From NCBI RefSeq assembly GCF_039541115.1, contig NZ_BAABFP010000002.1:1240001-1295952 (forward strand): a stretch of DNA of 55,952 nt, read 5' to 3'. The stretch comes from Angustibacter luteus. Its GTDB lineage: Bacteria > Actinomycetota > Actinomycetes > Actinomycetales > Angustibacteraceae. This document shows positions 24,230 through 47,537 of this stretch, in pieces. How positions within the stretch are numbered: the first letter of the stretch is position 1; every line of letters starts with the position of its first letter. The notes under the pieces are model-generated. The model ran no database searches, had not been told where the DNA came from, and saw only the letters and a list, made by a program, of their open reading frames with translations. Position numbers and translations under genes: made by a program.

Positions 24230-25195
24230 CTACCTCACCCACCGCCGCTCGGCACGCCCCCGGCCGCCGACGACGAGCCGACCCAACCGCGGCAGATCAT
24301 GGACGTCGGCCCAGCCGAACCGGACGACGCCCCAGCTCGCCCGCTCGATCGCCAGCTCGCGTCGCCGCTCCCGCCAGGCGACGTCCGACGCGGTCTCGCC
24401 CGGCTTCACTAGGCGTCCGTACTTGATCTTCCCGTCGAACTCGCCCACCAACCGCCACCGGATCCAGGCGAAGTCGACTCGGACGACCCCTTCGTCGGTG
24501 CGGATCTCGAGCTGGAGCTCGTCGGGTGCCAGGTCGAGCTGGTGCAGGGCCCAGCGCGCCAGGCTCTCGCCCGGCGACTCCGCTCGGCCGTCCGCCAGTG
24601 GCAGGACCCGGGACGCCCGCCGCGCACCGGGCCAGTCCATGCAGGCCTCGAGGTCACGACGCACCTGCTCCTGGGTGACGCCTCGCGCGCAGGCGGCGTC
24701 CGCGATCACCAGCGCACTGGCCGGCGAGGCGACGCGGGCGACGTCCAGGCTCGTGCGCGCCAGGTCCGACACCGGCAGGCCGTCCACCGTTCGCACGCGT
24801 TCGGTGGTCAGCGCCCCGACGTGGTGCCACACGCCCCCCTCGTGACGCCCGGATGACGCCCCGTCCGGGTGGGTGACGTGCACCTCGCTCAGGTCCAGGT
24901 CGTACGCCGGCAGCCCGTGCACCATCGCTGCACTCGTGTGCGAGAACGCGATGGGACTGCGCAGCGTCAGGTGCGCCGCGCGGGCCTGCAGGACGTGGCG
25001 GCCCGCGGCGTCCGCCTCTGTCACGAACCGGCTGGGTGCGAACACTCCACGCCGCAGGCGGACCCAGTGACCGTCCGCCAGACCGCGCTGGATCTCGCGC
25101 GGGTGCATCCCGACGTCCAGTGCCTGGGCCGTGGTGAAGACACCGCGCTGCGCGGCGACGACGGCATCGAGGCGGGGGTAAGGCAGTCCGGTCAT
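24230..25195 (-). CDS. AbiEi-antitoxin-like N-terminal wHTH protein with C-terminal Vsr/DUF559-like nuclease domain
   Basis: QRGVFTTAQA...WVRLRRGVF; SHTSAAMVHGL; VDGLPVSDLARTSLDVAR; AESPGESLAR; RVDFAW...GEFDGKIKY; ERRRE...WGVVRFGWADV. Confidence 0.85.
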   Translation of the reverse strand: MTGLPYPRLDAVVAAQRGVFTTAQALDVGMHPREIQRGLADGHWVRLRRGVFAPSRFVTEADAAGRHVLQARAAHLTLRSPIAFSHTSAAMVHGLPAYDLDLSEVHVTHPDGASSGRHEGGVWHHVGALTTERVRTVDGLPVSDLARTSLDVARVASPASALVIADAACARGVTQEQVRRDLEACMDWPGARRASRVLPLADGRAESPGESLARWALHQLDLAPDELQLEIRTDEGVVRVDFAWIRWRLVGEFDGKIKYGRLVKPGETASDVAWRERRRELAIERASWGVVRFGWADVHDLPRLGRLVVGGRGRAERRWVR

Positions 25196-25245
25196 CCGGA
25201 CAGGGTCGCCGCCCAGAGCGCGGTCGCGTAGGCCTCTACCGGCAT

Positions 25246-25286
25246 CTGTGGACGACGGGACGGGCCGGGCTTCCTGTGGACGACGG
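25246..25286. promoter_or_regulatory. 13-bp direct repeat pair upstream of the AbiEi-like gene
   Basis: CTGTGGACGACGG at 25246-25258 and 25274-25286. Confidence 0.5.
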
Positions 25287-25420
25287 CACCGCCCCCGGCC
25301 GCCAGCGACGAGGACCCCAAGGGCTGCTGTCACTTCTCGAGGGTTGTTCACCTCGAGAAGCGGGTCTAGACCCACTGAACGTGATCAACAGCGGGGGCGG
25401 AGCACGCCGGGGGGCAGGTG

Positions 25421-30484: not shown

Positions 30485-30580
30485 CGGCCGACCGTACGCC
30501 GGATCGGCACCCATCCGGGCGCCCCGGCGCGCCGAAGTGGTTGGATGCGTCGGACAGGTGTTCCGGGCGAGGAGGGGTCA

Positions 30581-32917
30581 GTGCGACTGCAGGACCAGCT
30601 CGACGGCCGGCGGATCCTGGTCACCGGCGTGACGGGCTTCGTCGGCGAGGCGCTGCTCCAGCGCATGCTGACCGAGCTGCCCGGCACCCAGCCCGTGGTC
30701 CTCGTCCGACCGAAGTCGGGCCAACCGGGACGCGACCGCATCGCCGGCCTGCTCGCCAAGCCGACCTTCCAGACCGCCGCCGAGCGCGCGGGCGGCGTCG
30801 ACGCCCTGCTCGACCGCGTCGAGGTCATCGAGGGTGACCTGCGCAACCTGCCCGTCCTGCCCACGGACCTCGACGTCGTCATCCACTGCGCGGGCGACGT
30901 CTCGTTCGACCCGCCGATCCAGGAGGCGTTCACCACCAACGTGGTCGGCACGCACTCGCTGCTGCAGCGGGTGCTGGAGGCCAGCGCGGACCACCCGGTG
31001 CACTACGTGCACGTCTCGACCGCCTACGTCGGTGGACGTCGCCGCGGCGCCATCCCCGAGCGCTCGGTGGCGCACGAGGTCGACTGGCGTGCGGAGCGGG
31101 ACGCCGGCCTGCGGCTCGCCCAGCAGATCGAGGACGACTCGCGGCGCGGCGACGTGCTGAAGCGGCTGAGCACCGAGGCCGAGAAGGAGCACGGTCGCGC
31201 CGGCCCCATCACCGCCGCGCAGGACGCCGAGCGGCGCCGCCGCGAGTGGGTCAAGAAGGAGCAGCTCAAGGCTGGTGGCGAGCGCGCCCGCAGCCTCGGC
31301 TGGACGGACGTCTACACCTTCACCAAGGCGATGGGTGAGCGGGTCGTCGAGGAGCTCACCAGCGGGACGTCGGTCGACGCGCCCGGTGCGCCCGCGATCC
31401 CGGTGAGCATCGTGCGGCCATCCATCATCGAGTCCGCGCTGGTCTGGCCGCACCCCGGCTGGATCGAGGGCTTCAAGATGGCCGAGCCCATCATCCTGGC
31501 GTACGGCCGCGGCGAGCTGCCGGACATGCCCGCCGCACCGGACTCGATCGTCGACATCGTGCCGGTCGACCACGTCGTCAACGCGCTGCTGGCGGTGTGC
31601 GCGACGAGCCCCGAGCCGGGCAGGCCCGACTACTTCCACGTCTCGTCGGGCGCGCGCAACCCGTTGACCTTCCGGCTGCTCTACGAGCTGGTCCGCGAGT
31701 ACTTCGAGCACCACCCGTTCGACCTCGGCGAGCGCGGCGCGGTGCCGCTGGCGACGTGGCACTTCCCCGGCTCGCACCAGGCCGAACGACTGCTCACCCA
31801 GGGCGAGGCCGTGCACCGGCTGGCCGACCGCGCGCTCGGCCTGCTGCCGCGCAGCGACCGGGCTCGCGAGTTCTCCCGCGACCTGGACCGCACCCGGCGC
31901 CGGCTGGAGTTCCTGCGCCGCTACCTGGACCTGTACCGCTCGTACACCCAGGTCGAGCTGCAGTTCATGGACGACCACACCCTGGCGCTGCACCGTGCGC
32001 TCGACCCGGCGGACCTCGAGCTGTTCGGCTTCGACACCGCGGTCGTGGACTGGACGCACTACATCCGCGACGTGCACTGCCCCAGCGTCACCGAGCCGAT
32101 GCGCAAGTACGACGTCATCCGGCGCAAGCGCCAGGCGGCCGGCGACCCGGGGCGACGCAAGATCGACGGCGACGCGGGCGAGCCCGGCCAGAAGGTGCTG
32201 GCGGTCTTCGACATGGACGGCACCCTGTTGTCCAGCAACGTGATCGAGACGTACCTGTGGCTGCGGCTGCCCGAGCTGGACGGCGCCGGGCGGGCCCGCG
32301 AGATCGGCCGGCTGCTGCGCCGCATGCCGTCGTACGTCGGGGCCGAGCGCCGCGACCGCGGCGGGTTCCTGCGCGCCGTCTACCGCCGCTACGCCGGCGC
32401 CGACCTGCACGAGCTGGACTCCCTCGTGGACGAGGTCATCGCACCGCACGTGCTGGAGCGGGTGTCGGGCGCGGCGATGCGCCGGGTGCGCGAGCACCGC
32501 GCGGCCGGCCACCACACGGTGCTGCTCACCGGAGCGATCCGGCCGCTCACCCGCCCGCTGGCGCCCCTGTTCGACCACGTCGTCGCCGCCGAGCTGGCCG
32601 TGGACGAGCGCGGCCGGGCCACCGGCTACCTCGCCTCGCCCCCGCTCGTCGGTGAGTCGCGGGCCGCCTGGCTGGTCCGGTACGCCGAGGTGAACGGCTA
32701 CGACCTGTCGCGCTCGTTCGGCTACGCGGACAGCCACTCCGACCTGCCGCTGCTGCGCGCGGTCGGCCGTCCCACCGCGGTCTCGCCCGACGTCCCGCTG
32801 TACCGGGCCGCCCGGGCCGCGCGCTGGCCCGTCGAGACGTGGCGGACGCCGCCCGCGACCTCACGCGGCCGGGTGCCCGACGTCCGGCACGACACCACGG
32901 GGGTGAGCCTGCCGTGA
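30581..32917 (+). CDS. Fatty acyl-CoA reductase (male-sterility-type extended SDR) fused to a C-terminal HAD-IB phosphatase
   Basis: TGVTGFVG, HVSTAYV, YTFTKAMGE, IVRPSII, PGWIEG, DIVPVDHVVN, FD...VDW..Y; then FDMDGTL, LLTG, YADSHSDLPLL. GTG start after a [10 protein letters not shown]. Confidence 0.88.
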   Translation: MRLQDQLDGRRILVTGVTGFVGEALLQRMLTELPGTQPVVLVRPKSGQPGRDRIAGLLAKPTFQTAAERAGGVDALLDRVEVIEGDLRNLPVLPTDLDVVIHCAGDVSFDPPIQEAFTTNVVGTHSLLQRVLEASADHPVHYVHVSTAYVGGRRRGAIPERSVAHEVDWRAERDAGLRLAQQIEDDSRRGDVLKRLSTEAEKEHGRAGPITAAQDAERRRREWVKKEQLKAGGERARSLGWTDVYTFTKAMGERVVEELTSGTSVDAPGAPAIPVSIVRPSIIESALVWPHPGWIEGFKMAEPIILAYGRGELPDMPAAPDSIVDIVPVDHVVNALLAVCATSPEPGRPDYFHVSSGARNPLTFRLLYELVREYFEHHPFDLGERGAVPLATWHFPGSHQAERLLTQGEAVHRLADRALGLLPRSDRAREFSRDLDRTRRRLEFLRRYLDLYRSYTQVELQFMDDHTLALHRALDPADLELFGFDTAVVDWTHYIRDVHCPSVTEPMRKYDVIRRKRQAAGDPGRRKIDGDAGEPGQKVLAVFDMDGTLLSSNVIETYLWLRLPELDGAGRAREIGRLLRRMPSYVGAERRDRGGFLRAVYRRYAGADLHELDSLVDEVIAPHVLERVSGAAMRRVREHRAAGHHTVLLTGAIRPLTRPLAPLFDHVVAAELAVDERGRATGYLASPPLVGESRAAWLVRYAEVNGYDLSRSFGYADSHSDLPLLRAVGRPTAVSPDVPLYRAARAARWPVETWRTPPATSRGRVPDVRHDTTGVSLP

Positions 32918-34122
32918 TGCTGGCGCTGGAGATGTTCCGCTCGATCCCGCGGTTCGCCGCCGCGAAGGTGAGCGGCGGGCGGATGCCCGGGCTGCTCGTG
33001 GGCCCGATGGCGCCGCTGCGCCTGGTCACCCGCGACGAGCCGGCCGTCCGCCGTCCGGGCTGGGCGCAGGTCAAGCCGTTGCTCTCCGGGATCTGCGGGT
33101 CGGACCTGGGCGCCATCACCGGGCAGACGTCCCTGTACTTCTCGGCGCTGGTCTCGATGCCGTTCGTGCCCGGCCACGAGGTGGTCGGCGAGCTGGCCGA
33201 GGACTGCGAGGACCTGCCCCGCGGCACCCGCGTGGTGGTCGACCCCGTGCTGGCCTGCGCCGCCCGCGGCGTCGACCCGTGCGAGCCGTGCCAGCAGGGC
33301 CGCACCAACCTGTGCAACCACGTGACCGTCGGACACATCTCGCCCGGGCTGCAGACCGGCTTCTGCCAGGACACCGGCGGCGGCTGGGGCGAGCGGCTGA
33401 CGGTGCACCGCTCGCAGCTGCACGCGGTGCCGGACTCGCTGACCGACGAGCGCGCGGTGCTGGTCGAGCCGCTGGCCTGCGCCGTGCAGCTGGCCCGGCG
33501 GGCGCAGGTGCCGGCGGGTGGCTCGGTACTCGTCTCCGGAGCCGGCGCCGTCGGCCTGTTCGCGGTGCTGGCGCTGCGCGAGCTGACCGACGCGGGGCGG
33601 ATCACCGTGATCGCCAAGCACGGACGGCAGGCCGACCTGGCCCGCCGGTTCGGCGCCAGCGACGTCGCCGCACCGGACGAGGCGATGCGCGCCGTGCGGC
33701 GGACCACCCGGGCGCTGCGCGTTGCGCCGCAAGGACTTCCGGCTCCCGCCGCCCGGCTCACCGGCGCCAGCGAGATGCTGCTCGGCGGCGTGGACGTCGC
33801 GGTCGACGCCGTCGGCTCGACGTCGTCGCTGGACACGGTGCTGCGCTCCACGAAGGCCGGCGGGCGGGCGGTGCTGTCCGGCATGCCGGCCGGCGCCGAC
33901 CTGTCCCCCGCGTGGTTCCGCGAGCTCGAGGTGGCCGGCACGTACGCGTCGTCCGGCGACGCCTTCGACGTCGCGATGCGGCTGGCCGAGCAGGCGCCGA
34001 TGGACGACGTGGTGGCCGGTCGCTACCCGCTGCACCGCTGGCGCGAGGCGCTGGACCACGCCCAGTCCGCGGGCCGGCTCGGTGCCGTCAAGGTCTGCTT
34101 CGACGTCCGGAGCCGCGCATGA
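32917..34122 (+). CDS. Zinc-dependent medium-chain dehydrogenase
   Basis: GICGSD, PGHEVVG, structural Zn motif C...CEPCQQGRTNLC, EPLAC, GAGAVG; TGATG overlap with the upstream gene. Confidence 0.9.
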   Translation: MLALEMFRSIPRFAAAKVSGGRMPGLLVGPMAPLRLVTRDEPAVRRPGWAQVKPLLSGICGSDLGAITGQTSLYFSALVSMPFVPGHEVVGELAEDCEDLPRGTRVVVDPVLACAARGVDPCEPCQQGRTNLCNHVTVGHISPGLQTGFCQDTGGGWGERLTVHRSQLHAVPDSLTDERAVLVEPLACAVQLARRAQVPAGGSVLVSGAGAVGLFAVLALRELTDAGRITVIAKHGRQADLARRFGASDVAAPDEAMRAVRRTTRALRVAPQGLPAPAARLTGASEMLLGGVDVAVDAVGSTSSLDTVLRSTKAGGRAVLSGMPAGADLSPAWFRELEVAGTYASSGDAFDVAMRLAEQAPMDDVVAGRYPLHRWREALDHAQSAGRLGAVKVCFDVRSRA

Positions 34123-34159
34123 GCACCGGACAGTTCCGTTCCCAGGCAAGGAGAAGCTC

Positions 34160-35740
34160 GTGACCCGCCCCGGTTTCGTCCTGGAGGTCGACGACCGCAC
34201 CCCGCCGCTCGTCGTCCACGAGGGGGAGGGCTTCCGGCTGGAGACCTTCCCGCGCGGCACCCGCGTCGTCTACCCGCCGGAGGCGATGCCGGGCATCCGG
34301 GACGTCGACGGCGCGATCCGCCGCGCGCTGCTCGAGCCGGTCGGCAGCGACCCGCTGCCCGCGCTGCTGTTCTCCGGCATGCGCCTGACCATCGCCTTCG
34401 ACGACATCTCGCTGCCTTTGCCGCCCATGGTGAAGCCGGACATCCGCCAGCGGATCATCGAGCAGGTCCTCACGATGGCCGCCGCCTCCGGCGTGGACGA
34501 CGTCGAGATCGTGTCCGCCAACGCGTTGCACCGCCGGCTCACACCGGCCGAGCTCAAGGACATCGTGGGCGAGCGGGTCTTCCGCTCGTTCTTCCCGCAG
34601 GGCGCGCTCTACAACCACGACGCCGAGGACAAGGCGAACCTGCTGCACGTCGGGCAGACCGACCGCGGTGAGGACGTCGAGATCAACCGGCGGGCGGCCG
34701 AGTCCGACCTGCTGATCTACGTCAACGTCAACCTGGTGGCGATGGACGGCGGCCACAAGTCCGTGCCGATCGGGCTCGCGTCGTACAAGTCGCTGCGGCA
34801 CCACCACAACAGCCACACGATGGTGCACTCGCGCTCGTTCATGGACCACACCAAGTCGGCCATGCACCACAGCGCCTGGCGGATGGGCCGGATGCTGGCC
34901 GACCACCTGAAGATCTTCACCATCGAGACGACGCTCAACAACGACGTCTTCCCCACCAACTACAAGTTCCTGATGAAGCGCGAGTGGGAGTGGGGCGTCA
35001 AGGACCAGGCGTCCATGCTGGCCGCCCGCCGCGGGCTGGCGGTGGCCCCGAAGGGCCTGCGGCACAACATCTTCCAGGGCATGCGCGCGCCGTACGGGCT
35101 GACCGGGGTGAATGCCGGCGAGACCGAGGCCGTGCACGAGCTGACCGTCGCGAAGGTGCACGAGCAGCAGATGGTCGAGGTGCAGGGGCAGAGCGACGTG
35201 CTGGTGCTCGGCGTGCCGTACCTCGGCCCGTACAACGTGAACTCCGTGATGAACCCGATCCTCGCGACCTGCATGGGGCTCGGCTACTACTTCAACAGCT
35301 ACCGGGGCCAGCCCGTCGTCCGCAAGGGCGGCGCGGTGATCCTCTACCACCCGGTCGAAGAGGACTTCAACCAGCTGCACCACCCGTCGTACGTGGACTT
35401 CTACGAGGAGGTCCTCACGACGTCCACCGAGCCGTCGGTGATCGAGGCGAAGTTCGAGGAGCAGTACGCGACCGACCCCTGGTACATCCACCTGTACCGG
35501 ACGTCGCACGCCTACCACGGCGTCCACCCGTTCTACATGTGGTACTGGGCGGCGCACGCCATGGACCACGTGGGCGACGTGATCTGGGTCGGCGCGAACC
35601 GGCGAGCGGTGGAGCGCATGGGGTTCCGGGCGGCGTCCTCGCTGCAGGACGCGCTCGAGATGGCGTCCGGCACCGTCGGTCGCTCGCCGTCCATCACCTA
35701 CCTGCGCAACCCACCGCACCTGATCGCGGACGTGCGATGA
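34160..35740 (+). CDS. Lactate racemase (LarA/DUF2088) domain protein
   Basis: ALLEPVGSDPL, TIAFDDISLP, ANALHRRLT..EL, NHDAED, G.T..G..VEINR...ESDL, GGHK, GGAVIL; AAGGAG RBS. Confidence 0.78.
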   Translation: MTRPGFVLEVDDRTPPLVVHEGEGFRLETFPRGTRVVYPPEAMPGIRDVDGAIRRALLEPVGSDPLPALLFSGMRLTIAFDDISLPLPPMVKPDIRQRIIEQVLTMAAASGVDDVEIVSANALHRRLTPAELKDIVGERVFRSFFPQGALYNHDAEDKANLLHVGQTDRGEDVEINRRAAESDLLIYVNVNLVAMDGGHKSVPIGLASYKSLRHHHNSHTMVHSRSFMDHTKSAMHHSAWRMGRMLADHLKIFTIETTLNNDVFPTNYKFLMKREWEWGVKDQASMLAARRGLAVAPKGLRHNIFQGMRAPYGLTGVNAGETEAVHELTVAKVHEQQMVEVQGQSDVLVLGVPYLGPYNVNSVMNPILATCMGLGYYFNSYRGQPVVRKGGAVILYHPVEEDFNQLHHPSYVDFYEEVLTTSTEPSVIEAKFEEQYATDPWYIHLYRTSHAYHGVHPFYMWYWAAHAMDHVGDVIWVGANRRAVERMGFRAASSLQDALEMASGTVGRSPSITYLRNPPHLIADVR

Positions 35741-36696
35741 CCGGCCCCGTCGTGCACGTGACCCGGCACGTGCTGTCCGGGCAGCTGCTGCGCGGCGCCC
35801 GGCAGGACATCAAGATGGTGTCGAAGGGCTGGCGCTGGGGTCGTCGCTCCATGGTGCCGCGCTCGGCGGAGCCGTTCGTGCCGCCGAAGCAGAGCGAGCC
35901 CTTCCCGACGTCCTGGGCGCGTGGGCCGGCCGCCATCGCGGTCCGCGACGGGATCCAGCGCTTCGGCCTGGGACCGTTGCTGCGCCACGAGATCAAGCCG
36001 ACCGTGCACGGGCTGGACGTGCTCGACCGGGTCGGCGGTCCGGTCATCTTCGTGGCCAACCACACCTCGCACCTGGACACCCCGCTGATCCTCTGCTCGC
36101 TGCCGGACCGCTGGCGGCGGCGCACCGCCGTCGCCGCAGCCGCCGACTACTTCTTCGACACCTGGTGGCGGGCGACGAGCTCGGCGATGGTGTTCAACAC
36201 CTTCCCGATCGAGCGGCGCTCGGGATCGCTGTCGTCGACGCCGGGCGACCTGCTGGAGGACGGCTGGTCCATCGTCGTGTTCCCCGAGGGCACCCGCTCC
36301 CCCGACGGTTGGACCCGGCAGTTCCGGCACGGTGCGGCCTTCCTCTCGGTGCAGCACGACGTCCCGGTGGTCCCGATCGCGATCCGCGGCTCGTTCGCCG
36401 CGATGCCCCGTGGTCGTGGCTGGCCGGTCCCCGGCCGCCCGCCGGTCACGATGCGGTTCGGCGACCCGATCAAGGCCCGCGAGGGCGAGGGCGCGCGCGA
36501 GCTCGGCGCGCGGCTCGAGGGCGCCGTCGCGCAGCTCATGGACGAGGACGAGACCTCCTGGTGGGACGCGACCCGGCGGGCCGCCCAGGGGGTCACGCCG
36601 ACGACGTCCGGCCCGGACGTCGCCCGCTGGCGCCGGGTGTGGACGCAGACCGCGTCGCCCGACGTCCGGTCGCACCGCCGCGTCTGGTCCCGCTGA
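35737..36696 (+). CDS. Lysophospholipid/glycerol-phosphate acyltransferase (PlsC family)
   Basis: ANHTSHLD (HX4D), FPEGTRS, VVPIAI.G; ATGA overlap with the upstream gene. Confidence 0.92.
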   Translation: MTGPVVHVTRHVLSGQLLRGARQDIKMVSKGWRWGRRSMVPRSAEPFVPPKQSEPFPTSWARGPAAIAVRDGIQRFGLGPLLRHEIKPTVHGLDVLDRVGGPVIFVANHTSHLDTPLILCSLPDRWRRRTAVAAAADYFFDTWWRATSSAMVFNTFPIERRSGSLSSTPGDLLEDGWSIVVFPEGTRSPDGWTRQFRHGAAFLSVQHDVPVVPIAIRGSFAAMPRGRGWPVPGRPPVTMRFGDPIKAREGEGARELGARLEGAVAQLMDEDETSWWDATRRAAQGVTPTTSGPDVARWRRVWTQTASPDVRSHRRVWSR

Positions 36697-36700
36697 CCCC

Positions 36701-36765
36701 CCGCACCAATCGCGCTTGGTGTGGCTATTCGGGCCGAAGAACCACGTCTAGCGCGAATGGTGCGG
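36701..36765. terminator. Long imperfect hairpin between convergent genes
   Basis: CCGCACCAATCGCGCTTGGTGTGG ... CCACGTCTAGCGCGAATGGTGCGG. Confidence 0.6.
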
Positions 36766-36779
36766 GTGGGGGGCACGGG

Positions 36780-37409
36780 CTAGGTCGCGTGCTGGGTGAT
36801 CCAGGTGTGCATGGCGATCGCCGCGGCAGCGCCGGCGTTGATCGAGCGGGTCGAGCCGAACTGGGCGATCGACAGGACGTCGTCGCAGGCCTCGTGCGCC
36901 GCCGGCGACAGTCCTGGCCCTTCCTGGCCGAACAGCAGCACGCACGCTCGCGGCAGCCGGTAGCCCTCCAGCGGGACGGCACCCGGCAGGTTGTCGACGC
37001 CGATCAGCGGCAGCGACCGCTCGTGCGCCCACGCGATCAGCGCGGCCACGTCGTCGTGGTGCGACAGGTGCTGGTAGCGGTCGGTGACCATCGCGCCGCG
37101 ACGGTTCCACCGGCGGCGCCCGACGACGTGCACCTGCGCGGCGAGGAACGCGTTCGCCGTCCGCACCACCGACCCGATGTTGAAGTCGTGCTGCCAGTTC
37201 TCGACGGCCACGTGGAACGGGTGCCGGCGGGTGTCCAGGTCCGCCACGATGGCCGCCATCCGCCAGTAGCGGTAGCGGTCCACGACGTTGCGCGCGTCAC
37301 CCTCGGCCAGCAGCTCCGGGTCGTACCGCGCGTCGTCCGGCCACGGCCCGACCCACGGACCCACGCCGATCTCCGACCCGTTCTCCCACCCGATCTCCAC
37401 CGCATCCAC
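36780..37409 (-). CDS. TrmH/SpoU family RNA methyltransferase
   Basis: ENWQHDFNIGSVVRTANAF, RRGAMVTDRY, FGQEGPGL, SIAQFGSTRSINAG. Start approximate. Confidence 0.92.
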   Translation of the reverse strand: MDAVEIGWENGSEIGVGPWVGPWPDDARYDPELLAEGDARNVVDRYRYWRMAAIVADLDTRRHPFHVAVENWQHDFNIGSVVRTANAFLAAQVHVVGRRRWNRRGAMVTDRYQHLSHHDDVAALIAWAHERSLPLIGVDNLPGAVPLEGYRLPRACVLLFGQEGPGLSPAAHEACDDVLSIAQFGSTRSINAGAAAAIAMHTWITQHAT

Positions 37410-37459
37410 GCAGCGAGCGTAGGGCGCACACCTCGCGGACACCTACGCTGGTGCGCGTG

Positions 37460-38083
37460 ATGCATGCACTCGGCCCGTCGTGGCTCGACCCCCAGCACCT
37501 GATCGACACCTACGCGCTGCCCGGCACGCTGCTGGTGGTGTTCATCGAGTGCGGGCTCTTCTTCTTCCTGCTGCCCGGCGACTCGCTGCTGTTCACCCTC
37601 GGACTGCTGATCTCCCAGGGCACGCTGCACCACTCGCTGGCGTACGTGATCCCGCTGCTCATCGTGGCAGCGTTCGCGGGCAGCATCGCGGGCTACGAGA
37701 TCGGCCGGGCGATGGGGCCGAGGATCACCGGGCCGAACTCCAGGCTCATCAGGCAGAAGCACGTGGACCAGACCCACGCCTTCTTCGAGCGGTACGGCGC
37801 CCGCGCCCTGATCCTCGGCCGCTTCGTGCCGATCGTCCGGACCTTCATCACGTTGATCGCGGGCGTCAGCCGGATGGACCGGCGGCAGTTCTACGTCTAC
37901 AGCGCCATCGGTGCCGTGCTCTGGGTGACGACGATGACGCTCGCCGGCTACTTCCTCGGCACGATCGACTTCGTCGCCAAGAACGTCGAGGCGATCGCGA
38001 TCCTGATCGTGTTCGTCTCCGTCATCCCGATCGGTTTCGAGTACCTGCGGCACCGGCGCGCCGAGCGGTCCTCGCAGGGCTGA
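37460..38083 (+). CDS. DedA family membrane protein
   Basis: FIECGL..FLLPGDSLLF, FFERYG, GRFVPIVRTF. Confidence 0.93.
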   Translation: MHALGPSWLDPQHLIDTYALPGTLLVVFIECGLFFFLLPGDSLLFTLGLLISQGTLHHSLAYVIPLLIVAAFAGSIAGYEIGRAMGPRITGPNSRLIRQKHVDQTHAFFERYGARALILGRFVPIVRTFITLIAGVSRMDRRQFYVYSAIGAVLWVTTMTLAGYFLGTIDFVAKNVEAIAILIVFVSVIPIGFEYLRHRRAERSSQG

Positions 38084-38095
38084 GCCCGCACGGAG

Positions 38096-39352
38096 CTAGC
38101 CGATGAGCTTCTTCTGCTCGGCGGCGATCGGGATGATCGGGCGGGTGTCGCTCTCGCGCAGGGCCTTGAAGACGATGTTGGCCTGCTCCTTGTCCCACAG
38201 CACGACCGACCCCGCACCCGGCCGGTTGCCGGTGCCCGACACCGGCACGGTGATGGACAGTCCCCCACCGCCGGCCGCCGACTTCATGCCCAGCAGGAAC
38301 TTCAGCAGCGCGACCGGCCCGGTGTGCTCGTCGATGGTGAGCGTCGCGGCGCCGCTGGAGGCCAGCGGGAACGCCTTGAACGGGTTGATCAGCGTGGTCG
38401 GGGTGCTGGCCTTGGCCACGATGGCGCCGAGCACCTCACGCTGACGCTCCACCCGGCCGAGGTCGCCACGCGGGTCGGAGTGGCGGGCCCGGGCGTACCC
38501 GAGCGCGGTGGCCCCGTCCGCCTGCTGGCAACCCTTCTTGACGTTGAGTCCGGCGTCCTTGTCCTTCATGTTGCGCTTGGGGCAGATCTGCACGCCGCCG
38601 ACGGCGTCCACCATCGAGGCGAAGCCGCCCAACCCGATCTCGGCGTAGTCGTCGATCTGCACGCCGGTGGCCTGCTCGATGGTCCGCGCGAGCAGCTTGG
38701 GGCCGCCGTACGCGTACGCCGCGTTGATCTTGTTCTTGCCGTGCCCGGGGATCGAGACGTAGCTGTCGCGCGGGATGCTCATCAGGACGTTGGGCCCACC
38801 GTTGGCCGGCAGGTGCAGCAGCATGATCGTGTCGGTGCGCTGGCCGAAGTCGCCGCCGGTGTGCAGCTTCTTGCGCTGGGCCTTGGTGAGTCCCTTGCGC
38901 GAGTCCGAGCCGACCACGAGATAGGTGCGGCCGGGTGTGGCGGCGGTGTTGGCGGGCAGGGCGTCGACGCGCCCCAGGTGCCGCCACGCGACGAAGAACA
39001 GCGCGACCGGGTAGACGATCAGGGCCAGGACGACGATCAGCACGATCGCCTTCCAGCCGGGCCGGAAGCCGCGACGGGCCTTCGCCGGCTGCGCGGGCGG
39101 CTGGGGACCGGGGCCGGCTGGGCCGGTGGGTCCGGACGGTCCACCGGGGCCCTTCGGAGCCAGCGGCTGGCTGGGGCGGCGCCCGTACGGCGGCTGAGCG
39201 GGCGGCTGGGCGCCGGGGGCGTGGACGCCGAAACCGGGCGGCGCGTCGGGCGCGCGGCCCGAGCCGCCCGAGGACGGGCGCGAGGGCCCGTTCGGGCTGG
39301 GAGGGGTGCGGATCACCCGGGTCGGGTCGTCGCCGGGTCGCTGGTCCGCCAT
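38096..39352 (-). CDS. LCP (LytR-CpsA-Psr) family protein with Pro-rich N-terminus
   Basis: TM helix followed by VGSDSR, RTDTIML, SIPRDSYV, KINAAY, VDAVGGV, GDLGRVERQR. Confidence 0.95.
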   Translation of the reverse strand: MADQRPGDDPTRVIRTPPSPNGPSRPSSGGSGRAPDAPPGFGVHAPGAQPPAQPPYGRRPSQPLAPKGPGGPSGPTGPAGPGPQPPAQPAKARRGFRPGWKAIVLIVVLALIVYPVALFFVAWRHLGRVDALPANTAATPGRTYLVVGSDSRKGLTKAQRKKLHTGGDFGQRTDTIMLLHLPANGGPNVLMSIPRDSYVSIPGHGKNKINAAYAYGGPKLLARTIEQATGVQIDDYAEIGLGGFASMVDAVGGVQICPKRNMKDKDAGLNVKKGCQQADGATALGYARARHSDPRGDLGRVERQREVLGAIVAKASTPTTLINPFKAFPLASSGAATLTIDEHTGPVALLKFLLGMKSAAGGGGLSITVPVSGTGNRPGAGSVVLWDKEQANIVFKALRESDTRPIIPIAAEQKKLIG

Positions 39353-39487
39353 GTCCGACAGGTTAGGCGATCGGCGAGCACGGGCTCGGCCATCGATGTG
39401 AAGGCGGCGTGGTGAACCGGGGGTGAGCGTGCGCGGGTGGGTGCGGGGTGGGTGGGTGCGGGGGTGGGTGCGGCGAGGTGGTCGTGA

Positions 39488-40768
39488 TCACGACCCGTTC
39501 GCCGCACCCACCGGTGCACGCTCGGCGGGCGCGGTGGACTCGGCCGGCTCCGGCGGCGCGACGTCCCGCAGCGGCAGCACCCGCAGCGCCAACCACCCGA
39601 CGACGACGAGCGCGAGGGAGCCGAAGAGCACGAACGACGGCGCCGCCCCCAGCTCGGACCCGGCGAGCCCGCCGAGCGCGAGCGCCACGATCGAGCAGGC
39701 GCGGGACCCCCCGTTGAGCGCGGCGCCGACCCGGCCGCGCACGGCGTCGGGCACCCGGGTGAACACGAGCGTGCCGGTGCTGGTGTTGAGCGCCCCGTTG
39801 GCGACGCCGAGCGTGCTGTAGACGACCGCGAGCGCCAGCACCGACGGCACCAGCCCGGCCAGCAGCAGCGCGAGGCTCTGCACGGCCGCCCCGACGACGA
39901 CCACGACGACCCGGCGCGGCGTCCGGCGGATGCGCCCGGCGAGCAGCGAGCCGACCACGATCCCGGCAGTGGTCACGGCACCGACGAGCCCGTACTGGAC
40001 CGACGTCCCGTGCAGGTGGTCGCGGATCAGGAAGACCTCGACGACGTTGGTGGCCTCGCCGACCACGATGTAGGCGAACAGCGCGACGAAGATCGGCCAG
40101 AGGAGCCGGTCGGCGCGGATCACCCGCAGACCGTCCAGCGCCCTGGGGCGGTCGGCGGTGCGCAGCGCGGCGTCGTGGCGGCCGGCGCGCCGGGTCCGGA
40201 CGAGCAGGGCAGCGGCGACGAGGGCGAGGAAGGTCCCGGCGTCCACGAGCAGCGGGAGGCGCTGGCCGCCGAGCCCGCTGAGGAGCCCACCGAGGGGCGC
40301 TCCGGCGACGGCCGCGAGGGTGGACAGCGCCTGGGTGGCGCCCATCGCCTGGCCGAGCTCGGCCTCGCCGACGATGCGCGGCACGAGCGCCTGCCAGGTT
40401 GGGTTCACCACGGCCTGGCCGGCCTGGAGGGCCATGACCAGCAGGTACACGCCCCACAGCGGCGCTGTGAAGGCGAGCGCCACGCAGACGACGACCTGGA
40501 GCAGGGAGGCCGTGACGAGCAGCAGCCGCGAGTCGACCCGGTCGGCGAGGCTACCGGCGAGCGGGGCCAGCAGCACGGTGGGGACGGCGGCGCTGATCAG
40601 CAGCAGCATGACGCCGCGAGCGCCGGCGCCGAGGTCGTGCACGTGCAGCATGAGGGCCACCAGTGCGATCTCGTCACCGAGGATGCTGAGGGCCCGAGCC
40701 GGGGCAGCGATGCGCAGGTCGCGGTGCCGCCACACGGACTCGGTCGAGGTCTGAAACAGTCGCTTCAT
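39488..40768 (-). CDS. MFS transporter (H+ antiporter-3/DHA3-like)
   Basis: LSILGD, APLAGSLADRVD.R, multiple TM segments, VPDAVRGRV. Start uncertain because it lies within the palindromic operator. Confidence 0.87.
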   Translation of the reverse strand: MKRLFQTSTESVWRHRDLRIAAPARALSILGDEIALVALMLHVHDLGAGARGVMLLLISAAVPTVLLAPLAGSLADRVDSRLLLVTASLLQVVVCVALAFTAPLWGVYLLVMALQAGQAVVNPTWQALVPRIVGEAELGQAMGATQALSTLAAVAGAPLGGLLSGLGGQRLPLLVDAGTFLALVAAALLVRTRRAGRHDAALRTADRPRALDGLRVIRADRLLWPIFVALFAYIVVGEATNVVEVFLIRDHLHGTSVQYGLVGAVTTAGIVVGSLLAGRIRRTPRRVVVVVVGAAVQSLALLLAGLVPSVLALAVVYSTLGVANGALNTSTGTLVFTRVPDAVRGRVGAALNGGSRACSIVALALGGLAGSELGAAPSFVLFGSLALVVVGWLALRVLPLRDVAPPEPAESTAPAERAPVGAANGS

Positions 40769-40789
40769 ACTTCTGAAGGTACTGTTTCA
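40752..40789. promoter_or_regulatory. Palindromic operator between the divergent MFS and ArsR-like genes
   Basis: TGAAACAGTCGCTTCA-N6-TGAAGGTACTGTTTCA (14/16 arm match), AT-rich. Confidence 0.75.
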
Positions 40790-40821
40790 CATCTGGATTG
40801 GCAACCCCTTACGCTGGGGTC

Positions 40822-41463
40822 GTGCCCGACGTCCCCGCCCCGTCCGAGGACGACCCGTCCGACGACCCGCACGAGCCGCAGCGGGAGGGCGACCGGATCG
40901 TCCTGACCGACCCCCGCGCCCTGCGCGCCCTGGCGCACCCGGCGCGCACCGCCGTCCTGGACGAGCTGTACCAGGGCAAGGTGCGCACCTCGAGCCAGCT
41001 GGCCGAGCTCACCGGGCTCACCCCCAGCGCCATGAGCTACCACCTGCGGGCCCTCGAGAAGTGGGGGATCGTCGTCCGGGCCGAGTCGGTGGACGGTCGG
41101 GAGCGGCCGTGGGCCGCAGCCGCCAAGGGGTTCTCGCTGTCGGGGCGCGACGCCGCCCAGGCAGCGACCGACACCGTCGTCGGGCTCTACCTGGACCGGC
41201 TCGGGCGCGACCTGGCCACGTGGCGGCGCGCCGAGCCCACGCAAGGCGAGTGGTCGGACACCTCGCAGGTGAGCCGCGGTTTCCCGTGGCTGACCGCCGA
41301 CGAGCTGCGCGAGGTCAACGCTGCGGTCATGGCCGTCTTCGAGCCGTACTTCGTCCGGGATGCGACGAACCACCCGGAGGGCGGCCGCCGGGTCGCCTAC
41401 CTCTTCGCGACCGCGCCGCTCGTCGAGGACGCCGAACCGAGCGGCTCGGACGACGGCCCGTGA
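40822..41463 (+). CDS. ArsR-like winged-helix transcriptional regulator
   Basis: LRALAHPARTAVL..L, SSQLAELTGLTPSAMSYHLRALEKWG, GRERPW. Confidence 0.9.
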   Translation: MPDVPAPSEDDPSDDPHEPQREGDRIVLTDPRALRALAHPARTAVLDELYQGKVRTSSQLAELTGLTPSAMSYHLRALEKWGIVVRAESVDGRERPWAAAAKGFSLSGRDAAQAATDTVVGLYLDRLGRDLATWRRAEPTQGEWSDTSQVSRGFPWLTADELREVNAAVMAVFEPYFVRDATNHPEGGRRVAYLFATAPLVEDAEPSGSDDGP

Positions 41464-42092
41464 GCGAGTGGCTCAGCCAGCTGCTGCACCCGGACCTGGC
41501 GCAGTACACGGCGGCCGGTCTGTACGCCGTCCTGTTCGGGCTGGTCTTCATCGAGACCGGGCTGCTCGTCGGGTTCTTCCTCCCGGGCGACACGGTCCTC
41601 TTCACCGCCGGCCTGCTCGCCGCCCACCCGTCGTCGCCGCTGTCGCTGGTGGTGCTGGCGGTGGGGGTGGCCGCCGCCGCAGTGCTCGGCGACGCCGTGG
41701 GCTACTGGTGCGGACGGCGGCTCGGCCGCCCGTGGGTCGAGCGTCGGGCCGGGCGGTTGGCCGCGCACCTGCCGCGGACGGAGGCGTTCTTCGAGCGCTG
41801 GGGATGGTCGGCCGTCGTGGTGGCCCGGTTCGTCCCGTGGCTGCGCACCTTCACCCCCATCGTGGCCGGGACCGCTGCCATGCCGTACCCGCGGTTCCTG
41901 TCGGCCAACATCGTGGGCGCGCTGGCCTGGGGGTCGGGGCTCGTGCTGATCGGGTACGTCGCCTACTCGGTGCCCTGGGTGCGCTACGTGGCGTACGGGA
42001 TCGCGCTGGCGTCCGTGCTCGCGTCGATCATCGGGCCGCTCGTCGTCCGCCGGCGCCGCCGTCGACAGGCCGCCACCGCCCCCGGGCGTTGA
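41460..42092 (+). CDS. DedA family membrane protein (second copy)
   Basis: FIETGLLVGFFLPGDTVLF, FFERWG, ARFVPWLRTFTP; GTGA overlap with the regulator; stop TGA lies inside the family A repeat. Confidence 0.92.
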   Translation: MSEWLSQLLHPDLAQYTAAGLYAVLFGLVFIETGLLVGFFLPGDTVLFTAGLLAAHPSSPLSLVVLAVGVAAAAVLGDAVGYWCGRRLGRPWVERRAGRLAAHLPRTEAFFERWGWSAVVVARFVPWLRTFTPIVAGTAAMPYPRFLSANIVGALAWGSGLVLIGYVAYSVPWVRYVAYGIALASVLASIIGPLVVRRRRRRQAATAPGR

Positions 42093-42173
42093 TCACGTTC
42101 AGTGGGTCTGCACCCGCTTCTCGAGGGTCGTTCGCCTCGAGAAGCGGGTGTTCACCCACTGAACGTGATCAAC
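42088..42173. repeat. Family A 86-bp palindrome (empty REP/MITE-like copy)
   Basis: GTTGATCACGTTCAGTGGGT-CTG-CACCCGCTTCTCGAGG-N8-CCTCGAGAAGCGGGTG-TTC-ACCCACTGAACGTGATCAAC. Confidence 0.92.
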
Positions 42174-42198
42174 AGCGAAGGGGCGTGAGGCGTGGTGG

Positions 42199-42867
42199 TC
42201 AGGAGGGCGCGGGCGGGGAGTCCTGGGGCGCGGACGGCGCGGGCGCCGCCGCGGGCGGGGCGGTCGTCGCGGGCGCCGCGGCGGCCGAGGTCGACGTCCC
42301 GAAGGAGACCTGCGGGGCCGCCCGGGTCGCGGCGTCCTCGACCTCGAAGTACTCGGCGGTCGTGATGTGGAACATGCCGGCGACGATGTTCGACGGCACG
42401 GTCTCGACCTTGGTGTTCAGCGCGCGCACGTTGGCGTTGTAGAAGCGCCGGGACGCCGCCACCCGGTCCTCGGTGTCGGTGAGGTCGCGCTGCAGCTGCA
42501 GGAAGTTCGTGTTCGCCTTGAGGTCCGGGTAGGCCTCGGCCACCGCGAACAGCCGCCCGAGGGCCGCCGTCAGCACGTTCTCCTGCTGGGCCTGCTGCGC
42601 CGGGGACGCACCCGGCGCCGCGGCGGCCGCCCGCGCGTTCGTGACGGCCTGCAGAGTCTCTCGCTCGTGCGAGGCGTAACCCTTCACCGTCTCGACGAGG
42701 TTCGGGATCAGGTCGTGCCGCCGGTTGAGCTCGACGTCGATCTGCCGCCACGACTCCTGGACGACGTTGCGCAGCCGGATCAGGCCGTTGTACTGGCTGA
42801 CGAAGTACAGCGCCAGGATGACGACGATCACGATCACGACGATCAGGGCGATGATGCCACCGGTCAT
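42199..42867 (-). CDS. LemA family protein
   Basis: N-terminal TM; YN.L..LRN, IDVELNRRHDLIPNLVETVKGYASHE, EAYPDLKA, RRFYN. Confidence 0.95.
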   Translation of the reverse strand: MTGGIIALIVVIVIVVILALYFVSQYNGLIRLRNVVQESWRQIDVELNRRHDLIPNLVETVKGYASHERETLQAVTNARAAAAAPGASPAQQAQQENVLTAALGRLFAVAEAYPDLKANTNFLQLQRDLTDTEDRVAASRRFYNANVRALNTKVETVPSNIVAGMFHITTAEYFEVEDAATRAAPQVSFGTSTSAAAAPATTAPPAAAPAPSAPQDSPPAPS

Positions 42868-42953
42868 GGGGTTCCCTCCCGAGGGTGCAGCGCGATGCTA
42901 CCGGTCGTTCAGACGTGCGGACCGGCGCTGCGGTTCCCGTGGCGCCGAACGGG

Positions 42954-43685
42954 TCAGACCTGCTCGGGCTGGTAGCCGTGGTCGAGCCAGACGAAGCGGG
43001 GCACCCCGGCCAGCAGGTCGGCCACCAGCCGGAGCCGGTCCTCCACGAACTCCGGCACGAGCTGCCCGGCGTCGACCACGATCACCCAGCCGCCGTCCAC
43101 CCGCAGGGACGCGTCGTCACGCGCGAGCAGCCGCTCCACGGTGCGCGGGTTCAGCAGGTCCACGGCGAGCTTCTCGTCATCGGCCCGGACCCGGTAGCGG
43201 CGGTTGAAGTCGGCGTGCTCGATCTCGATGTCCTGACCGCCGAAGGCCCGCAACAGCCTGTCTCCCAGCCGTTCCCGGCTCACCACGACCCGACCCAGGG
43301 GGACCGGCAAGGCCACCGCGAGCACCCGGTACGCGTGGTCGCGACGCTGCTGGGTGGTGACCGTCCGACCGTTCGCGTCGGTGCTCGTCACGGTCTCGTA
43401 GGTCGTGAAGCGGTGGGTGAAGGCCACCTGACGCTGGCCGCCCACGACCCGGTCGCAGACGTCGTCCGCGTGCCGGTCCGAACCCTGCCCGAACGGGGCC
43501 CCCTGGAAGGCGCCGACCCAGCGGTCGTCCCGCCCGGCCAGCAGCCAGCCGCCGGCCTGGGCGAACGCCTGCAGCGCCGCCTTCCGCCCCTTCTCGCGCT
43601 TGCTGGCCAGCACCAGGGCCACGACGAAACCGCCGACCATCAGGATGCCGATCAGCACCACCAGCGGGAACAGCATCATGCTCAC
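42954..43685 (-). CDS. Hypothetical membrane-anchored protein (LemA-associated)
   Basis: N-terminal TM; DIEIEHADFNRRYRV motif; co-oriented with lemA. Confidence 0.75.
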   Translation of the reverse strand: MSMMLFPLVVLIGILMVGGFVVALVLASKREKGRKAALQAFAQAGGWLLAGRDDRWVGAFQGAPFGQGSDRHADDVCDRVVGGQRQVAFTHRFTTYETVTSTDANGRTVTTQQRRDHAYRVLAVALPVPLGRVVVSRERLGDRLLRAFGGQDIEIEHADFNRRYRVRADDEKLAVDLLNPRTVERLLARDDASLRVDGGWVIVVDAGQLVPEFVEDRLRLVADLLAGVPRFVWLDHGYQPEQV

Positions 43686-43787
43686 GGCGACACCCCCACC
43701 TGCCCGGTCGCTCCGGACGTCTGACGGTCAGTCTGCCGGGTCAGCCGCCGCCAGGGGGCCTGTTCGCGCACCGCGTCACCTTGGCGG

Positions 43788-44330
43788 CTACAGGCCGAGC
43801 TCGTCCTTGCCGTAGGCGAACAGGTAGTCCAGGCCTGCCTCGCGCACCTTCTCGGCCGCGCCGGTGTCCCGGTCCACGATCACCGCGACGGCGACGACCT
43901 CGGCGCCCGCCGCGCGCAGCGCCTCGACGGCGGTGAGCGCGGAGCCACCGGTGGTCGAGGTGTCCTCGACGGCCAGCACGCGCCGTCCGGAGACGTCCGG
44001 CCCCTCGATCTGCTTCTGCAGCCCGTGCGCCTTGCCCTCCTTGCGGACGACGAAGGCGTCCAGCCGCTCTCCGCGCGCGGCTGCGGCGTGCAGCATCGCG
44101 GCGGCCACCGGGTCGGCGCCCATGGTCAGGCCACCGACGGCGTCGAACTCGAGGTCGGCCGCCAGGTCGAGCATGACCTCGCCGACCAGCGGGGCGGCGG
44201 CGCCGTCCAGGGTGATGCGGCGCAGGTCGACGTAGTAGTCGGCCTCCTTACCGCTGGACAGGGTCACCTTGCCGCGCACGATCGCGGAGTCGGTGATGTG
44301 GGCGAGGAGGGCTTCGCGAGGAGTCGTCAC
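43788..44330 (-). CDS. pyrE: Orotate phosphoribosyltransferase
   Basis: TLSSGKEADYYVDLR, GGLTMGADP, VRKEGKAHG, VEDTSTTGGS, IVDR. Confidence 0.96.
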   Translation of the reverse strand: MTTPREALLAHITDSAIVRGKVTLSSGKEADYYVDLRRITLDGAAAPLVGEVMLDLAADLEFDAVGGLTMGADPVAAAMLHAAAARGERLDAFVVRKEGKAHGLQKQIEGPDVSGRRVLAVEDTSTTGGSALTAVEALRAAGAEVVAVAVIVDRDTGAAEKVREAGLDYLFAYGKDELGL

Positions 44331-44355
44331 AGGCCCCGAGCCTATCGGGTGCGGC

Positions 44356-45129
44356 TCAGTTGCCGGCGCGACGGGACTGGATCGTGCTGGACGCCTTGCG
44401 CACCAACGACCGCGGCGCGTGCCGGGACAGGAACGAGAGGGTCTTGAAGCGCCGGCTCGGGATGCTGACGACCCGGCCACGGTCGAGGTCGGCGAGCGCC
44501 GCCGAGACGACGTCGTCCACGTCCAGCCAGCCAGCGGCCGGCAGCCGGGACATGTTGATCCGGCCGCGCTCGTGGAACTCCGTCTTCACGAAGCCCGGGC
44601 ACAGCGCCATGACGCGGACCCCGCGCGGGCCGAGCTCGCCGGCCAGCGCCTCGCTGAACGTCGTCTCCCAGGCCTTGACCGCCGAGTAGGTCCCCATGGC
44701 CGCGAACCCGGCGACCGAGGACACGTTGACGATCGCACCGTGGCCGCGCTCGACCATCGGCTCGGCCGCGGCGTGGCTGAGGACGAGCACCGCGCGGCAG
44801 TGGATGTCGAGCAGCCGCTCCTGCGCCGCGACGTCACCGCGCAGGAACCCGTGCCCGAGCCCGAAGCCGGCGTTGTTGACGAGCAGGTCGACGGGCCGGC
44901 CGGAGTCCGCGAGGCGGTCGGCCACCCGCTGCACGTCGGCGCGGTCGGTGAGGTCGGCCGCGATCGTCTCGGCCTCGCGCCCGTAGACGGTGCGGACCTC
45001 CTCGGCGACCTCGTCGAGCCGCTCCCGCCCGCGGGCGACGAGGACGACGTCGTAGCCCTGGGCGGCGAGGTGGCGGACGAAGGAGTGGCCGATCCCGGCG
45101 GTCGCGCCGGTCACGAGTGCGGTCGTCAT
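44356..45129 (-). CDS. Short-chain dehydrogenase/reductase
   Basis: TGATAGIG, VNNAG, NVSS, YSAVK, CPGFVKTEF. Confidence 0.93.
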   Translation of the reverse strand: MTTALVTGATAGIGHSFVRHLAAQGYDVVLVARGRERLDEVAEEVRTVYGREAETIAADLTDRADVQRVADRLADSGRPVDLLVNNAGFGLGHGFLRGDVAAQERLLDIHCRAVLVLSHAAAEPMVERGHGAIVNVSSVAGFAAMGTYSAVKAWETTFSEALAGELGPRGVRVMALCPGFVKTEFHERGRINMSRLPAAGWLDVDDVVSAALADLDRGRVVSIPSRRFKTLSFLSRHAPRSLVRKASSTIQSRRAGN

Positions 45130-45204
45130 GGACGCCGACCCTAGTCGCCGCCGGGCTGCGCGGGCCTGCGCACGCTGTCGGAGCCGCCAGGTAGGTTCGG
45201 GACC

Positions 45205-45987: not shown

Positions 45988-46001
45988 CCTAGGTTGCCGT
46001 C

Positions 46002-47527: not shown

Positions 47528-47537
47528 AGCGGCACTC

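Follow-up and report, generated by a model that had tools for sequence, protein, structure and literature searches.

A four-gene operon of Angustibacter luteus related to the myxobacterial elb cluster, and a candidate role for its LarA-like protein in ether-lipid formation

Introduction

The closest described systems are two gene sets of Myxococcus xanthus. The first, elbA-E, corresponds to MXAN_1531-1527 (PMC13012113), which makes elbC MXAN_1529. Mutants in elbD or in elbE lose their ether lipids, with a polar effect reported for elbB and no effect for elbA; ElbC is listed as a protein whose function is not known, and the elb steps that turn a fatty acid into an alkyl ether lipid are described as unknown (PMC9131029). 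The second operon encodes AGPS, a protein combining a fatty acyl-CoA reductase (FAR) with GNPAT, and a short-chain dehydrogenase/reductase (SDR) (PMC9131029). In the classification of LarA homologues (LarAH), MXAN_1529 falls in group 15 and proteins of Frankia and Nocardioides in group 14 (PMC7583248 Dataset S2). The subject of the present work is a four-gene operon at positions 30581..36696 of a 55,952-nucleotide stretch of the Angustibacter luteus genome (the window), which encodes a FAR fused to a HAD phosphatase, a zinc-dependent medium-chain reductase (MDR), a group 14 LarAH and a PlsC-type acyltransferase (AT). The reading that we favour, at about even odds (roughly 0.5), is that these proteins form ether lipids and that the LarAH catalyses the ether-forming step.

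Part of this context is already in print. LarAH group 14, its gene neighbours and its odd residue set have been published with the function unassigned (PMC7583248, PMC12611868, PMC11770544); the neighbours tabulated for group 14 are COG0204, COG0560, COG1063 and COG3320, as at the window operon, and those for group 15 are SDR, HAD and acyl-CoA synthetase (ACS) (PMC7583248 Table S1). The examined parts of PMC7583248 contain no link of group 14 to lipids or to elb, and a literature search, with subscription literature mostly outside its scope, found no paper tying ElbC to LarA, DUF2088 or nickel. The figures or supplements of a recent preprint, in which genes are coloured by Pfam, may already show the Lar_N domain (bioRxiv 10.64898/2026.06.23.733905).

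Homology with the elb cluster

The operon comprises four co-oriented genes on the + strand, G1 to G4, encoding in this order the FAR-HAD fusion, the MDR, the LarAH and the AT. For comparison with elb, a group-15-type query returned 80 metagenome loci, with HAD in 67 and FAR in 53 of them; many combine HAD, LarAH and a FAR-ACS-AT protein. The order HAD-LarAH-[FAR-ACS-ACP-AT]-epimerase (ACP, acyl carrier protein) is that of elbBCDE, and loci were termed 'elb-order' or 'myxo-type' by gene order and resemblance rather than by named taxon. In the seven cases checked (7/7), the ElbD-type gene is directly followed by an open reading frame (ORF) for an epimerase-family SDR; two more distant ORFs, in other loci, did not encode one. 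Profiles built from 10 elb-order loci, all without actinobacterial sequences, were searched against the A. luteus genome, and the HAD, FAR, AT and LarAH domains of the operon each ranked first. The window domain scored 246 bits against 24 for the next match with FAR, 161 against 128 with HAD and, at a modest margin, 117 against 95 with AT, and G3 was the only match of the LarAH profile. The window LarAH shares 44-46% identity over about 520 aa with three elb-order LarAH proteins; MXAN_1529 itself was compared with it by eye over the first 400 residues.

Intermediate arrangements connect the two layouts. All 120 of the long FAR-domain homologues among those listed (120/120) contain FAR plus an AMP-binding domain, which is the ElbD architecture. 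Three clusters (L034, L176, L194) carry a full ElbD-HAD-MDR-LarAH set; in that of L034, from Acidobacteriota, the MDR is the same as in the window. In a Dehalococcoidia cluster (L030), MDR and LarAH are accompanied by a lipid kinase, FAR-AT, HAD and PlsY. Of 122 long loci, 89 encode the MDR without an ElbE-type SDR and 11 the SDR without the MDR; none encodes both and 22 encode neither. The window operon has no ElbE SDR, and the MDR occupies its slot; AMP-binding and ACP domains are also missing from the operon, with 13 ACS-like matches elsewhere in the genome. An ElbE-like SDR (170 bits with the ElbE profile) is encoded far from the operon (G000:C5:86545-87750, L243).

The comparison with myxobacterial elb clusters that the original prediction had called for thus identifies the LarA-like gene as an elbC homologue and matches HAD, FAR and AT with ElbB and ElbD. 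Homology of the operon with elb is close to certain, and judged from its sequence it is best described as a rearranged actinobacterial counterpart of elbBCDE in which MDR replaces ElbE. Because it lacks ACS-ACP and ElbE, it is regarded as a variant of the elb system and not as a formal member. There are good odds that it works like elb.

Conservation and distribution

The set of loci consisted of the best 80 of at least 592 confirmed relatives from a scan of species genomes, and 66 of the 80 had enough flank. Among these, 61 of 66 contained all five modules, FAR-HAD-MDR-LarAH-AT, in the window order; the other five (L028, L029, L030, L034, L089) have titles that are not actinobacterial. Carriers with a name include Nocardioides soli, a Kribbella and an Actinomadura. 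Absence of co-occurrence in other genomes had been named at the outset as evidence that would count against the predicted pathway, and co-occurrence with order kept is what these loci show. Of 301 Actinomycetota genomes sampled, 70 encode a LarAH over the NF052592 cut-off, a tally that includes genomes marked unpublished (G088, G146 and G217 among the 70; G001, G018, G048, G068, G120, G171 and G228 also in the sample). In the class of the window, the count was 23 of 201 genomes (unpublished G315 among the 23), with 0/14 for the genomes of the same order listed there. No result other than these tallies depends on the unpublished genomes. A plasmid search for LarA gave only 11 distant matches, none covering 80%.

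Several variants of the cluster were observed. In family f19 (L109, L110), the place of the PlsC-type gene is taken by PlsY, upstream of FAR-HAD, and MDR and LarAH are separated by an inserted protoglobin gene together with a MOSC or GAF gene. Seven clusters (L028, L030, L089, L175, L176, L183, L194) include a DAGK/YegS-type lipid kinase, in most cases directly behind LarAH, in agreement with a product that is dephosphorylated and then phosphorylated again. The Acidobacteriota cluster has an IS481-type transposase between MDR and LarAH (L034:6867-7814). More distant LarAH relatives of other actinobacterial classes, at 28-41% identity (L100-L104, L114, L118, L119), are solitary or lie near an acyl-CoA synthetase.

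The LarA-like protein and the nickel-pincer cofactor

G3 scores well over the cut-off of 740 bits of NCBIfam NF052592 (LarAH14/15/16). It keeps D82, H124, K200, H216, Y358 and H456, of which, by alignment with Lactobacillus plantarum LarA, D82 is the ribose-binding Asp, H124 the first catalytic His, K200 the Lys that tethers the nickel-pincer nucleotide (NPN) and H216 the nickel-ligand His. Equivalents of LarA Arg75, His174 (the second catalytic His) and Lys298 are missing, and Leu85, an Asn/Val region and Asn365 stand there; Desguin noted the same missing residues for LarAH groups 14 and 15 (PMC7583248). Across 187 aligned high-scoring homologues, K200, H216 and H124 are each present in 185-186 and Y358 in 185. 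The structure model (pLDDT 95.8) has as its closest solved fold an NPN-loaded single-His LarA (9Q3K, TM 0.75). A basic insertion of about 50 aa at 262-311 forms a helix with a mean of +3.8 and no marked hydrophobic moment, so membrane binding by the insertion is not claimed.

Since only one of the two catalytic His residues is kept, G3 is probably not a racemase. Frankia LarAH14 was also negative in seven racemase and epimerase assays, and the earlier suggestion that the LarA-like protein epimerises the glycerol backbone loses ground on both counts. That G3 uses the NPN cofactor is probable, judged from its residues, its fold and the distribution of larC. The A. luteus genome encodes larB and larC (contig C4) and larE (C8). 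larB-larC (G000:C4:306800-313300, L121) lie near genes for a PAP2 phosphatase and a DAGK-type enzyme, and larE near one for an AMP-binding enzyme, proximities that may be due to chance. larC was present in 23/23 class genomes with LarAH over the cut-off and in 50/178 others, in 62/62 LarAH genomes of one order and in 20/68 others, and in 27/27 of the locus genomes searched (27 of the 80), and larB in 61/70 LarAH-positive genomes of the phylum sample and in 143/231 others; the overlaps for larC were counted by hand, and such counts overstate the association because related genomes are not independent, a caution against the favoured reading. At three loci (L188, L198, L221), the operon has as its neighbour larBCE or, where a contig ends, larE.

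Reductase, phosphatase and acyltransferase modules

FAR Y245 and K249 are kept in 136/136 aligned homologues, and the best Protein Data Bank (PDB) sequence match of G1 is the fatty acyl-CoA reductase 7EOZ (E 1.6e-42). The MDR keeps its catalytic C60/H87/E88/E184 and four structural Cys, and its best PDB match is the NADP(H)-dependent ketose reductase 1E3J. In MDR enzymes, a nucleotide fingerprint rule distinguishes NADPH from NADH preference; G2 has Ala233-Lys/Arg234 at this place and no acidic residue, which suggests an NADPH-type enzyme. A polyol/ketose-type MDR with such a fingerprint fits reduction of a glycerone carbonyl. The keto-reductase role that had been proposed for the zinc enzyme thus gains from its occupying the ElbE reductase slot and from its NADPH-type appearance, and the reaction itself stays conjectural. 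G4 carries the motifs H109-x4-D114 and FPEGxRS of a PlsC-type (HX4D, PF01553) acyltransferase. Wax-ester synthesis, the alternative named earlier, is weakened by this type of acyltransferase; WS/DGAT is not found in the operon, but two PF03007 genes lie elsewhere in the genome. No AGPS candidate was identified in the A. luteus genome, where two PF02913 matches occur, one glycolate-oxidase-like and the other in a 968-aa frame without comparison; nor was a PlsA/Ger (PF09989/DUF2229) candidate found in this genome (0/1).

Proposed pathway

The elb cluster combines FAR, AT, SDR, HAD and ElbC without AGPS, and the second M. xanthus operon has AGPS; by subtraction, ElbC together with HAD would fill the AGPS slot. 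On this basis, the window operon may encode an elb-type route to 1-O-alkylglycerol ether lipids, fed with acyl-CoA of the general pool. FAR would convert acyl-CoA to fatty alcohol, as its family and catalytic residues suggest, and the AT would acylate a three-carbon acceptor, dihydroxyacetone phosphate or glycerol 3-phosphate. NPN-loaded LarAH14 would exchange the acyl for the alkyl chain without net redox change, as AGPS does in animals, HAD acting before or after this step. Finally, the NADPH-type MDR would reduce the carbonyl of alkyl-glycerone or alkyl-glyceraldehyde, its pairing with LarAH being shown by the joint loss described below; in the clusters that have it, the lipid kinase would re-phosphorylate the product.

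For the exchange, the chemistry that we favour would be a transient hydride transfer, carbonyl-assisted elimination of the carboxylate and addition of the fatty alcohol. NAD enzymes such as S-adenosylhomocysteine hydrolase provide a precedent for transient oxidation followed by elimination and addition. An NPN enzyme with intermolecular hydride transfer between two substrates is also known (PMC13524815). This last precedent also favours a different ether-forming chemistry, hydrogen borrowing or reductive etherification, in which LarAH would oxidise the alcohol to an aldehyde on NPN, a hemiacetal would form with a glycerol hydroxyl, water would leave, the hydride would return and MDR would recycle a carbonyl by-product. 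The Tyr of single-His LarA (LarASp 307, equivalent to the highly conserved Y358) is placed like the catalytic Tyr of that NPN enzyme (PMC13524815), and i15:0 aldehyde in M. xanthus depends on elbD (PMC9131029). However, no precedent was found for hemiacetal water loss in an enzyme pocket, and the constant presence of the AT is explained less well, so that hydrogen borrowing appears quite unlikely.

Taken by itself, the statement that the operon product is an ether lipid is probable, judged from gene content. The generalisation is more tentative and falls somewhat below an even chance: that ElbC and LarAH of groups 14 and 15 are nickel-pincer ether-forming enzymes working with an interchangeable MDR or SDR, that aerobic ether lipids are common in Actinomycetota and that degenerate LarAH copies are structural.

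Joint loss of LarAH catalysis and MDR

Two sets of genomes have lost the LarAH active site. In three genomes of one genus (g265; two of them single-contig), larB and larC were not found, and LarAH lacks K200, N191, H215, E256 and H326 in 3/3; of their MDR genes, one (L217) no longer encodes the zinc ligands, one (L218) is split and one (L219) runs into the end of its contig. FAR and HAD are intact in 2/2 of the loci covered and AT in 3/3. The order of L012 has 21 low-scoring loci, of which 20 were taken (L223-L242; G607 left out). All 20 operons are without an MDR gene and have lost K200, and H124 is lost in 19; the LarAH frames still span about 500-540 codons, the FAR and HAD residues are intact in 20/20, and AT is intact in six and weak, partial or missing in 14. 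The pattern of both sets resembles the published LarAH group 16. A class-wide search of 201 genomes with a degenerate LarAH query (P0250) brought up no further dead lineage.

Because a dead LarAH goes with a lost or damaged MDR, LarAH catalysis and MDR are one module. The coupling is one-way, since a high-scoring LarAH can lack a nearby MDR or ElbE. In a quick FAR tree, the operons with dead LarAH stand in two or three places, and a single origin was rejected (p-AU 4e-05) in a one-clade approximately unbiased (AU) test on 35 of 78 rows, with 43 dropped; the loss is accordingly counted for two lineages or more.

Evidence against the favoured reading and alternative explanations

Several observations weigh against LarAH as the ether-forming enzyme. 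In a quick LarAH tree, all 22 dead copies lie on one side of a branch; this grouping may reflect long-branch attraction, the copies having long branches and odd composition, and as separate origins could not be read from this tree, the FAR tree served instead. Full-length dead LarAH stands beside intact FAR-HAD in 22 loci, which implies that FAR-HAD does something without LarAH catalysis, and larC persists in 14 of 21 genomes with dead LarAH. Among the 22 of 122 long loci with neither MDR nor ElbE nearby are some with high-scoring LarAH (e.g. L202). Nine of the 70 LarAH-positive genomes, eight of them in one family, are without larB; in five of the nine that were searched again (92-98% complete), larB, larC and larE were not found, and these genomes (G179, G268, G213, G116, G014; L203-L207) keep the operon with K200, H216 and H124, the LarAH of L204 and the AT of L205 being split across frames. 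An intact operon without larBCE could reflect uptake of the cofactor, contigs missing from the assembly, a recent loss or activity that needs no NPN.

The literature adds further points on the same side. Characterised LarA enzymes all act on 2-hydroxy acids. No elbC mutant is described in the consulted part of the review of the elb system, which also reports that purified ElbD had no FAR or AT activity (PMC9131029). Sponge elb-like families 5-10 have elbD and elbB homologues only, and many clusters are without elbC (bioRxiv 10.64898/2026.06.23.733905); in Pontiella, which has elbD homologues, ether lipids were not detected (PMC11868695). Ether-linked lipids are reported from Propionibacterium propionicum and Cutibacterium acnes (PMC11237483), which may or may not carry a form of the operon, and a literature search found no lipid analysis for any named carrier of the operon and no confirmation of glycerol ethers in Gaiella.

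These observations bear on two further explanations. According to the first, the product is a non-ether lipid, such as a monoacylglycerol, a wax-type ester, a long-chain diol or a lipid in which one stereocentre is inverted, and LarAH and MDR are an optional tailoring pair, inverting or reducing a single centre. FAR-HAD, and AT in 6 of 20 loci, do remain intact after LarAH and MDR have decayed; the genome has the two WS/DGAT genes, LarA enzymes are isomerases, and what ties the actinobacterial operon to ethers is homology. However, every module matches a genetically supported elb cluster, the racemase residue set of G3 is incomplete and the WS/DGAT genes lie outside the operon, which together make a non-ether product unlikely.

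According to the second, the route does lead to ether lipids but the ether is made by another module, LarAH serving mostly as a scaffold or lipid carrier or acting without NPN. The dead copies are in line with this idea: they persist at full length, and their best-kept parts are the N-terminal 40 residues (identity 0.66 against 0.35 in the catalytic domain), a short motif of the insertion and the C-terminal 55 residues, a pattern that hints at a second role. The five genomes with intact LarAH and no larBCE found, the elb-like clusters without elbC and the ether lipids of the two propionibacteria can be read in the same way. However, the near-invariance of K200, H216 and H124 among high-scoring homologues and the close association of larC with intact LarAH copies weigh against it, and no other module has chemistry suited to ether formation; this explanation is accordingly given a low probability. 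A prediction of a complex between the FAR domain and LarAH (the L232 pair, 78-row alignments) gave no support and was not used as evidence. An ether-forming LarAH with MDR as its partner remains our preferred reading.

Organisation of the four-gene unit

The features of the unit are collected in Table 1. GC3 is 0.96-0.98 for each of the four genes. A sequence check confirmed the TGATG overlap between G1 and G2 and the ATGA overlap between G3 and G4 on which the operon had originally been predicted, but at the G2 stop (34119) the ATGA does not lie in the reading frame of G3, so that its ATG was discarded as a start for this gene; the start is the GTG at 34160, with an AAGGAG site directly upstream. 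The out-of-frame ATG opens a 14-codon ORF that ends over this GTG and may act as a ribosome relay or be due to chance.

The upstream methyltransferase gene and the downstream SpoU gene have the opposite orientation, which limits the operon to these four genes. A long hairpin had been expected to close it, and the predicted structure (-56.6 kcal/mol, z -3.99) was matched in stability by 0 of 200 shuffles. It is without a T-run, and promoter and terminator scans of the window region gave 0 sites each; the hairpin is likely a bidirectional terminator without a U-tract. The rest of the window (1-29500 and 37400-55952) is occupied by housekeeping genes (purine genes, purA, fba, NagD-type HAD, DedA, LCP, LemA, pyrE, ClpB), and it also has an AbiEi-like gene (24230-25375) and a HerA-like ATPase (7393-8793).

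Table 1. Features of the four-gene unit and its borders in the window.
Feature	Position	Strand	Remarks
Purine run, ribosome-binding-site-like, 5' of the G1 GTG	30569..30577	+	seen in sequence
G1, FAR-HAD fusion	30581-32917	+	778 aa; NAD_binding_4 E 2.6e-46, Sterile, HAD E 6e-34
G1 N-terminal part, eukaryote-type fatty acyl reductase (NAD_binding_4 + Sterile)	30581..32110	+	counterpart of the ElbD reductase domain
G1 C-terminal part, HAD-IB phosphatase	32170..32917	+	D544-x-D546, T650, D717, D721; ElbB counterpart
G2, Zn-dependent MDR, polyol/ketose type	32917-34122	+	401 aa; ADH_N + ADH_zinc_N
14-codon ORF spanning G2 stop and G3 start	34119..34163	+	possible relay, or chance
G3, LarAH group 14, ElbC homologue	34160-35740	+	526 aa; Lar_N; NF052592 919.6 bits
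G4, PlsC-type acyltransferase	35737-36696	+	319 aa; Acyltransferase E 2.6e-24; counterpart of the ElbD acyltransferase domain
Long hairpin in the interval between G4 and the convergent SpoU gene	36692..36775	.	folding

Implications

Surveys for bacteria that make ether lipids rely on queries with ElbD, AGPS and Ger (bioRxiv 10.64898/2026.06.23.733905, PMC11868695), and would miss or under-score the split actinobacterial form. If the favoured reading is true, the missing elb enzyme is named, the LarA fold gains a reaction outside racemisation, and ether formation uses a cofactor and a fold that are not related to those of AGPS or PlsA/Ger. Many soil actinobacteria would then become possible sources of the alkyl glycerol ethers used as environmental markers. 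The operon makes the open elb step directly testable.

Comparison with known systems

Like M. xanthus elbABCDE, the window operon joins in a single unit FAR, HAD, a LarA homologue, an acyltransferase of PlsC type and one NAD(P)H carbonyl reductase. It differs in that AMP-binding and ACP domains are absent, FAR is fused to HAD instead of ACS-ACP-AT, the acyltransferase is free, Zn-MDR replaces the SDR ElbE, elbA is absent and the LarAH belongs to group 14, not 15. With the animal route and MXAN_1676-1674 (FAR, GNPAT, AGPS and reductase), the proposed scheme shares the sequence of alcohol formation, acylation, exchange and carbonyl reduction; unlike these, the operon has no FAD-dependent AGPS, and LarAH with HAD would take its place.

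The closest folds to G3 are those of LarASp and LarABw (9Q3K, 9Q2U, 9Q3J; PMC12611868). LarASp Asp73, His115, Asn185, Lys195, His211, Tyr307 and His401 correspond to G3 D82, H124, N191, K200, H216, Y358 and H456, as counted by hand on the alignment; Tyr307 and His401 belong to the pocket. In contrast, identity is about 22%, Lys76 and His306 are not kept, G3 has the extra basic insertion and an N-terminal extension, and the genomic context of LarASp and LarABw is sugar metabolism (PMC12611868), that of G3 lipid metabolism. G3 itself falls in LarAH group 14, whose members Franean1_4168 and Noca_2000 (PMC7583248) share with it the residue pattern and gene neighbours.

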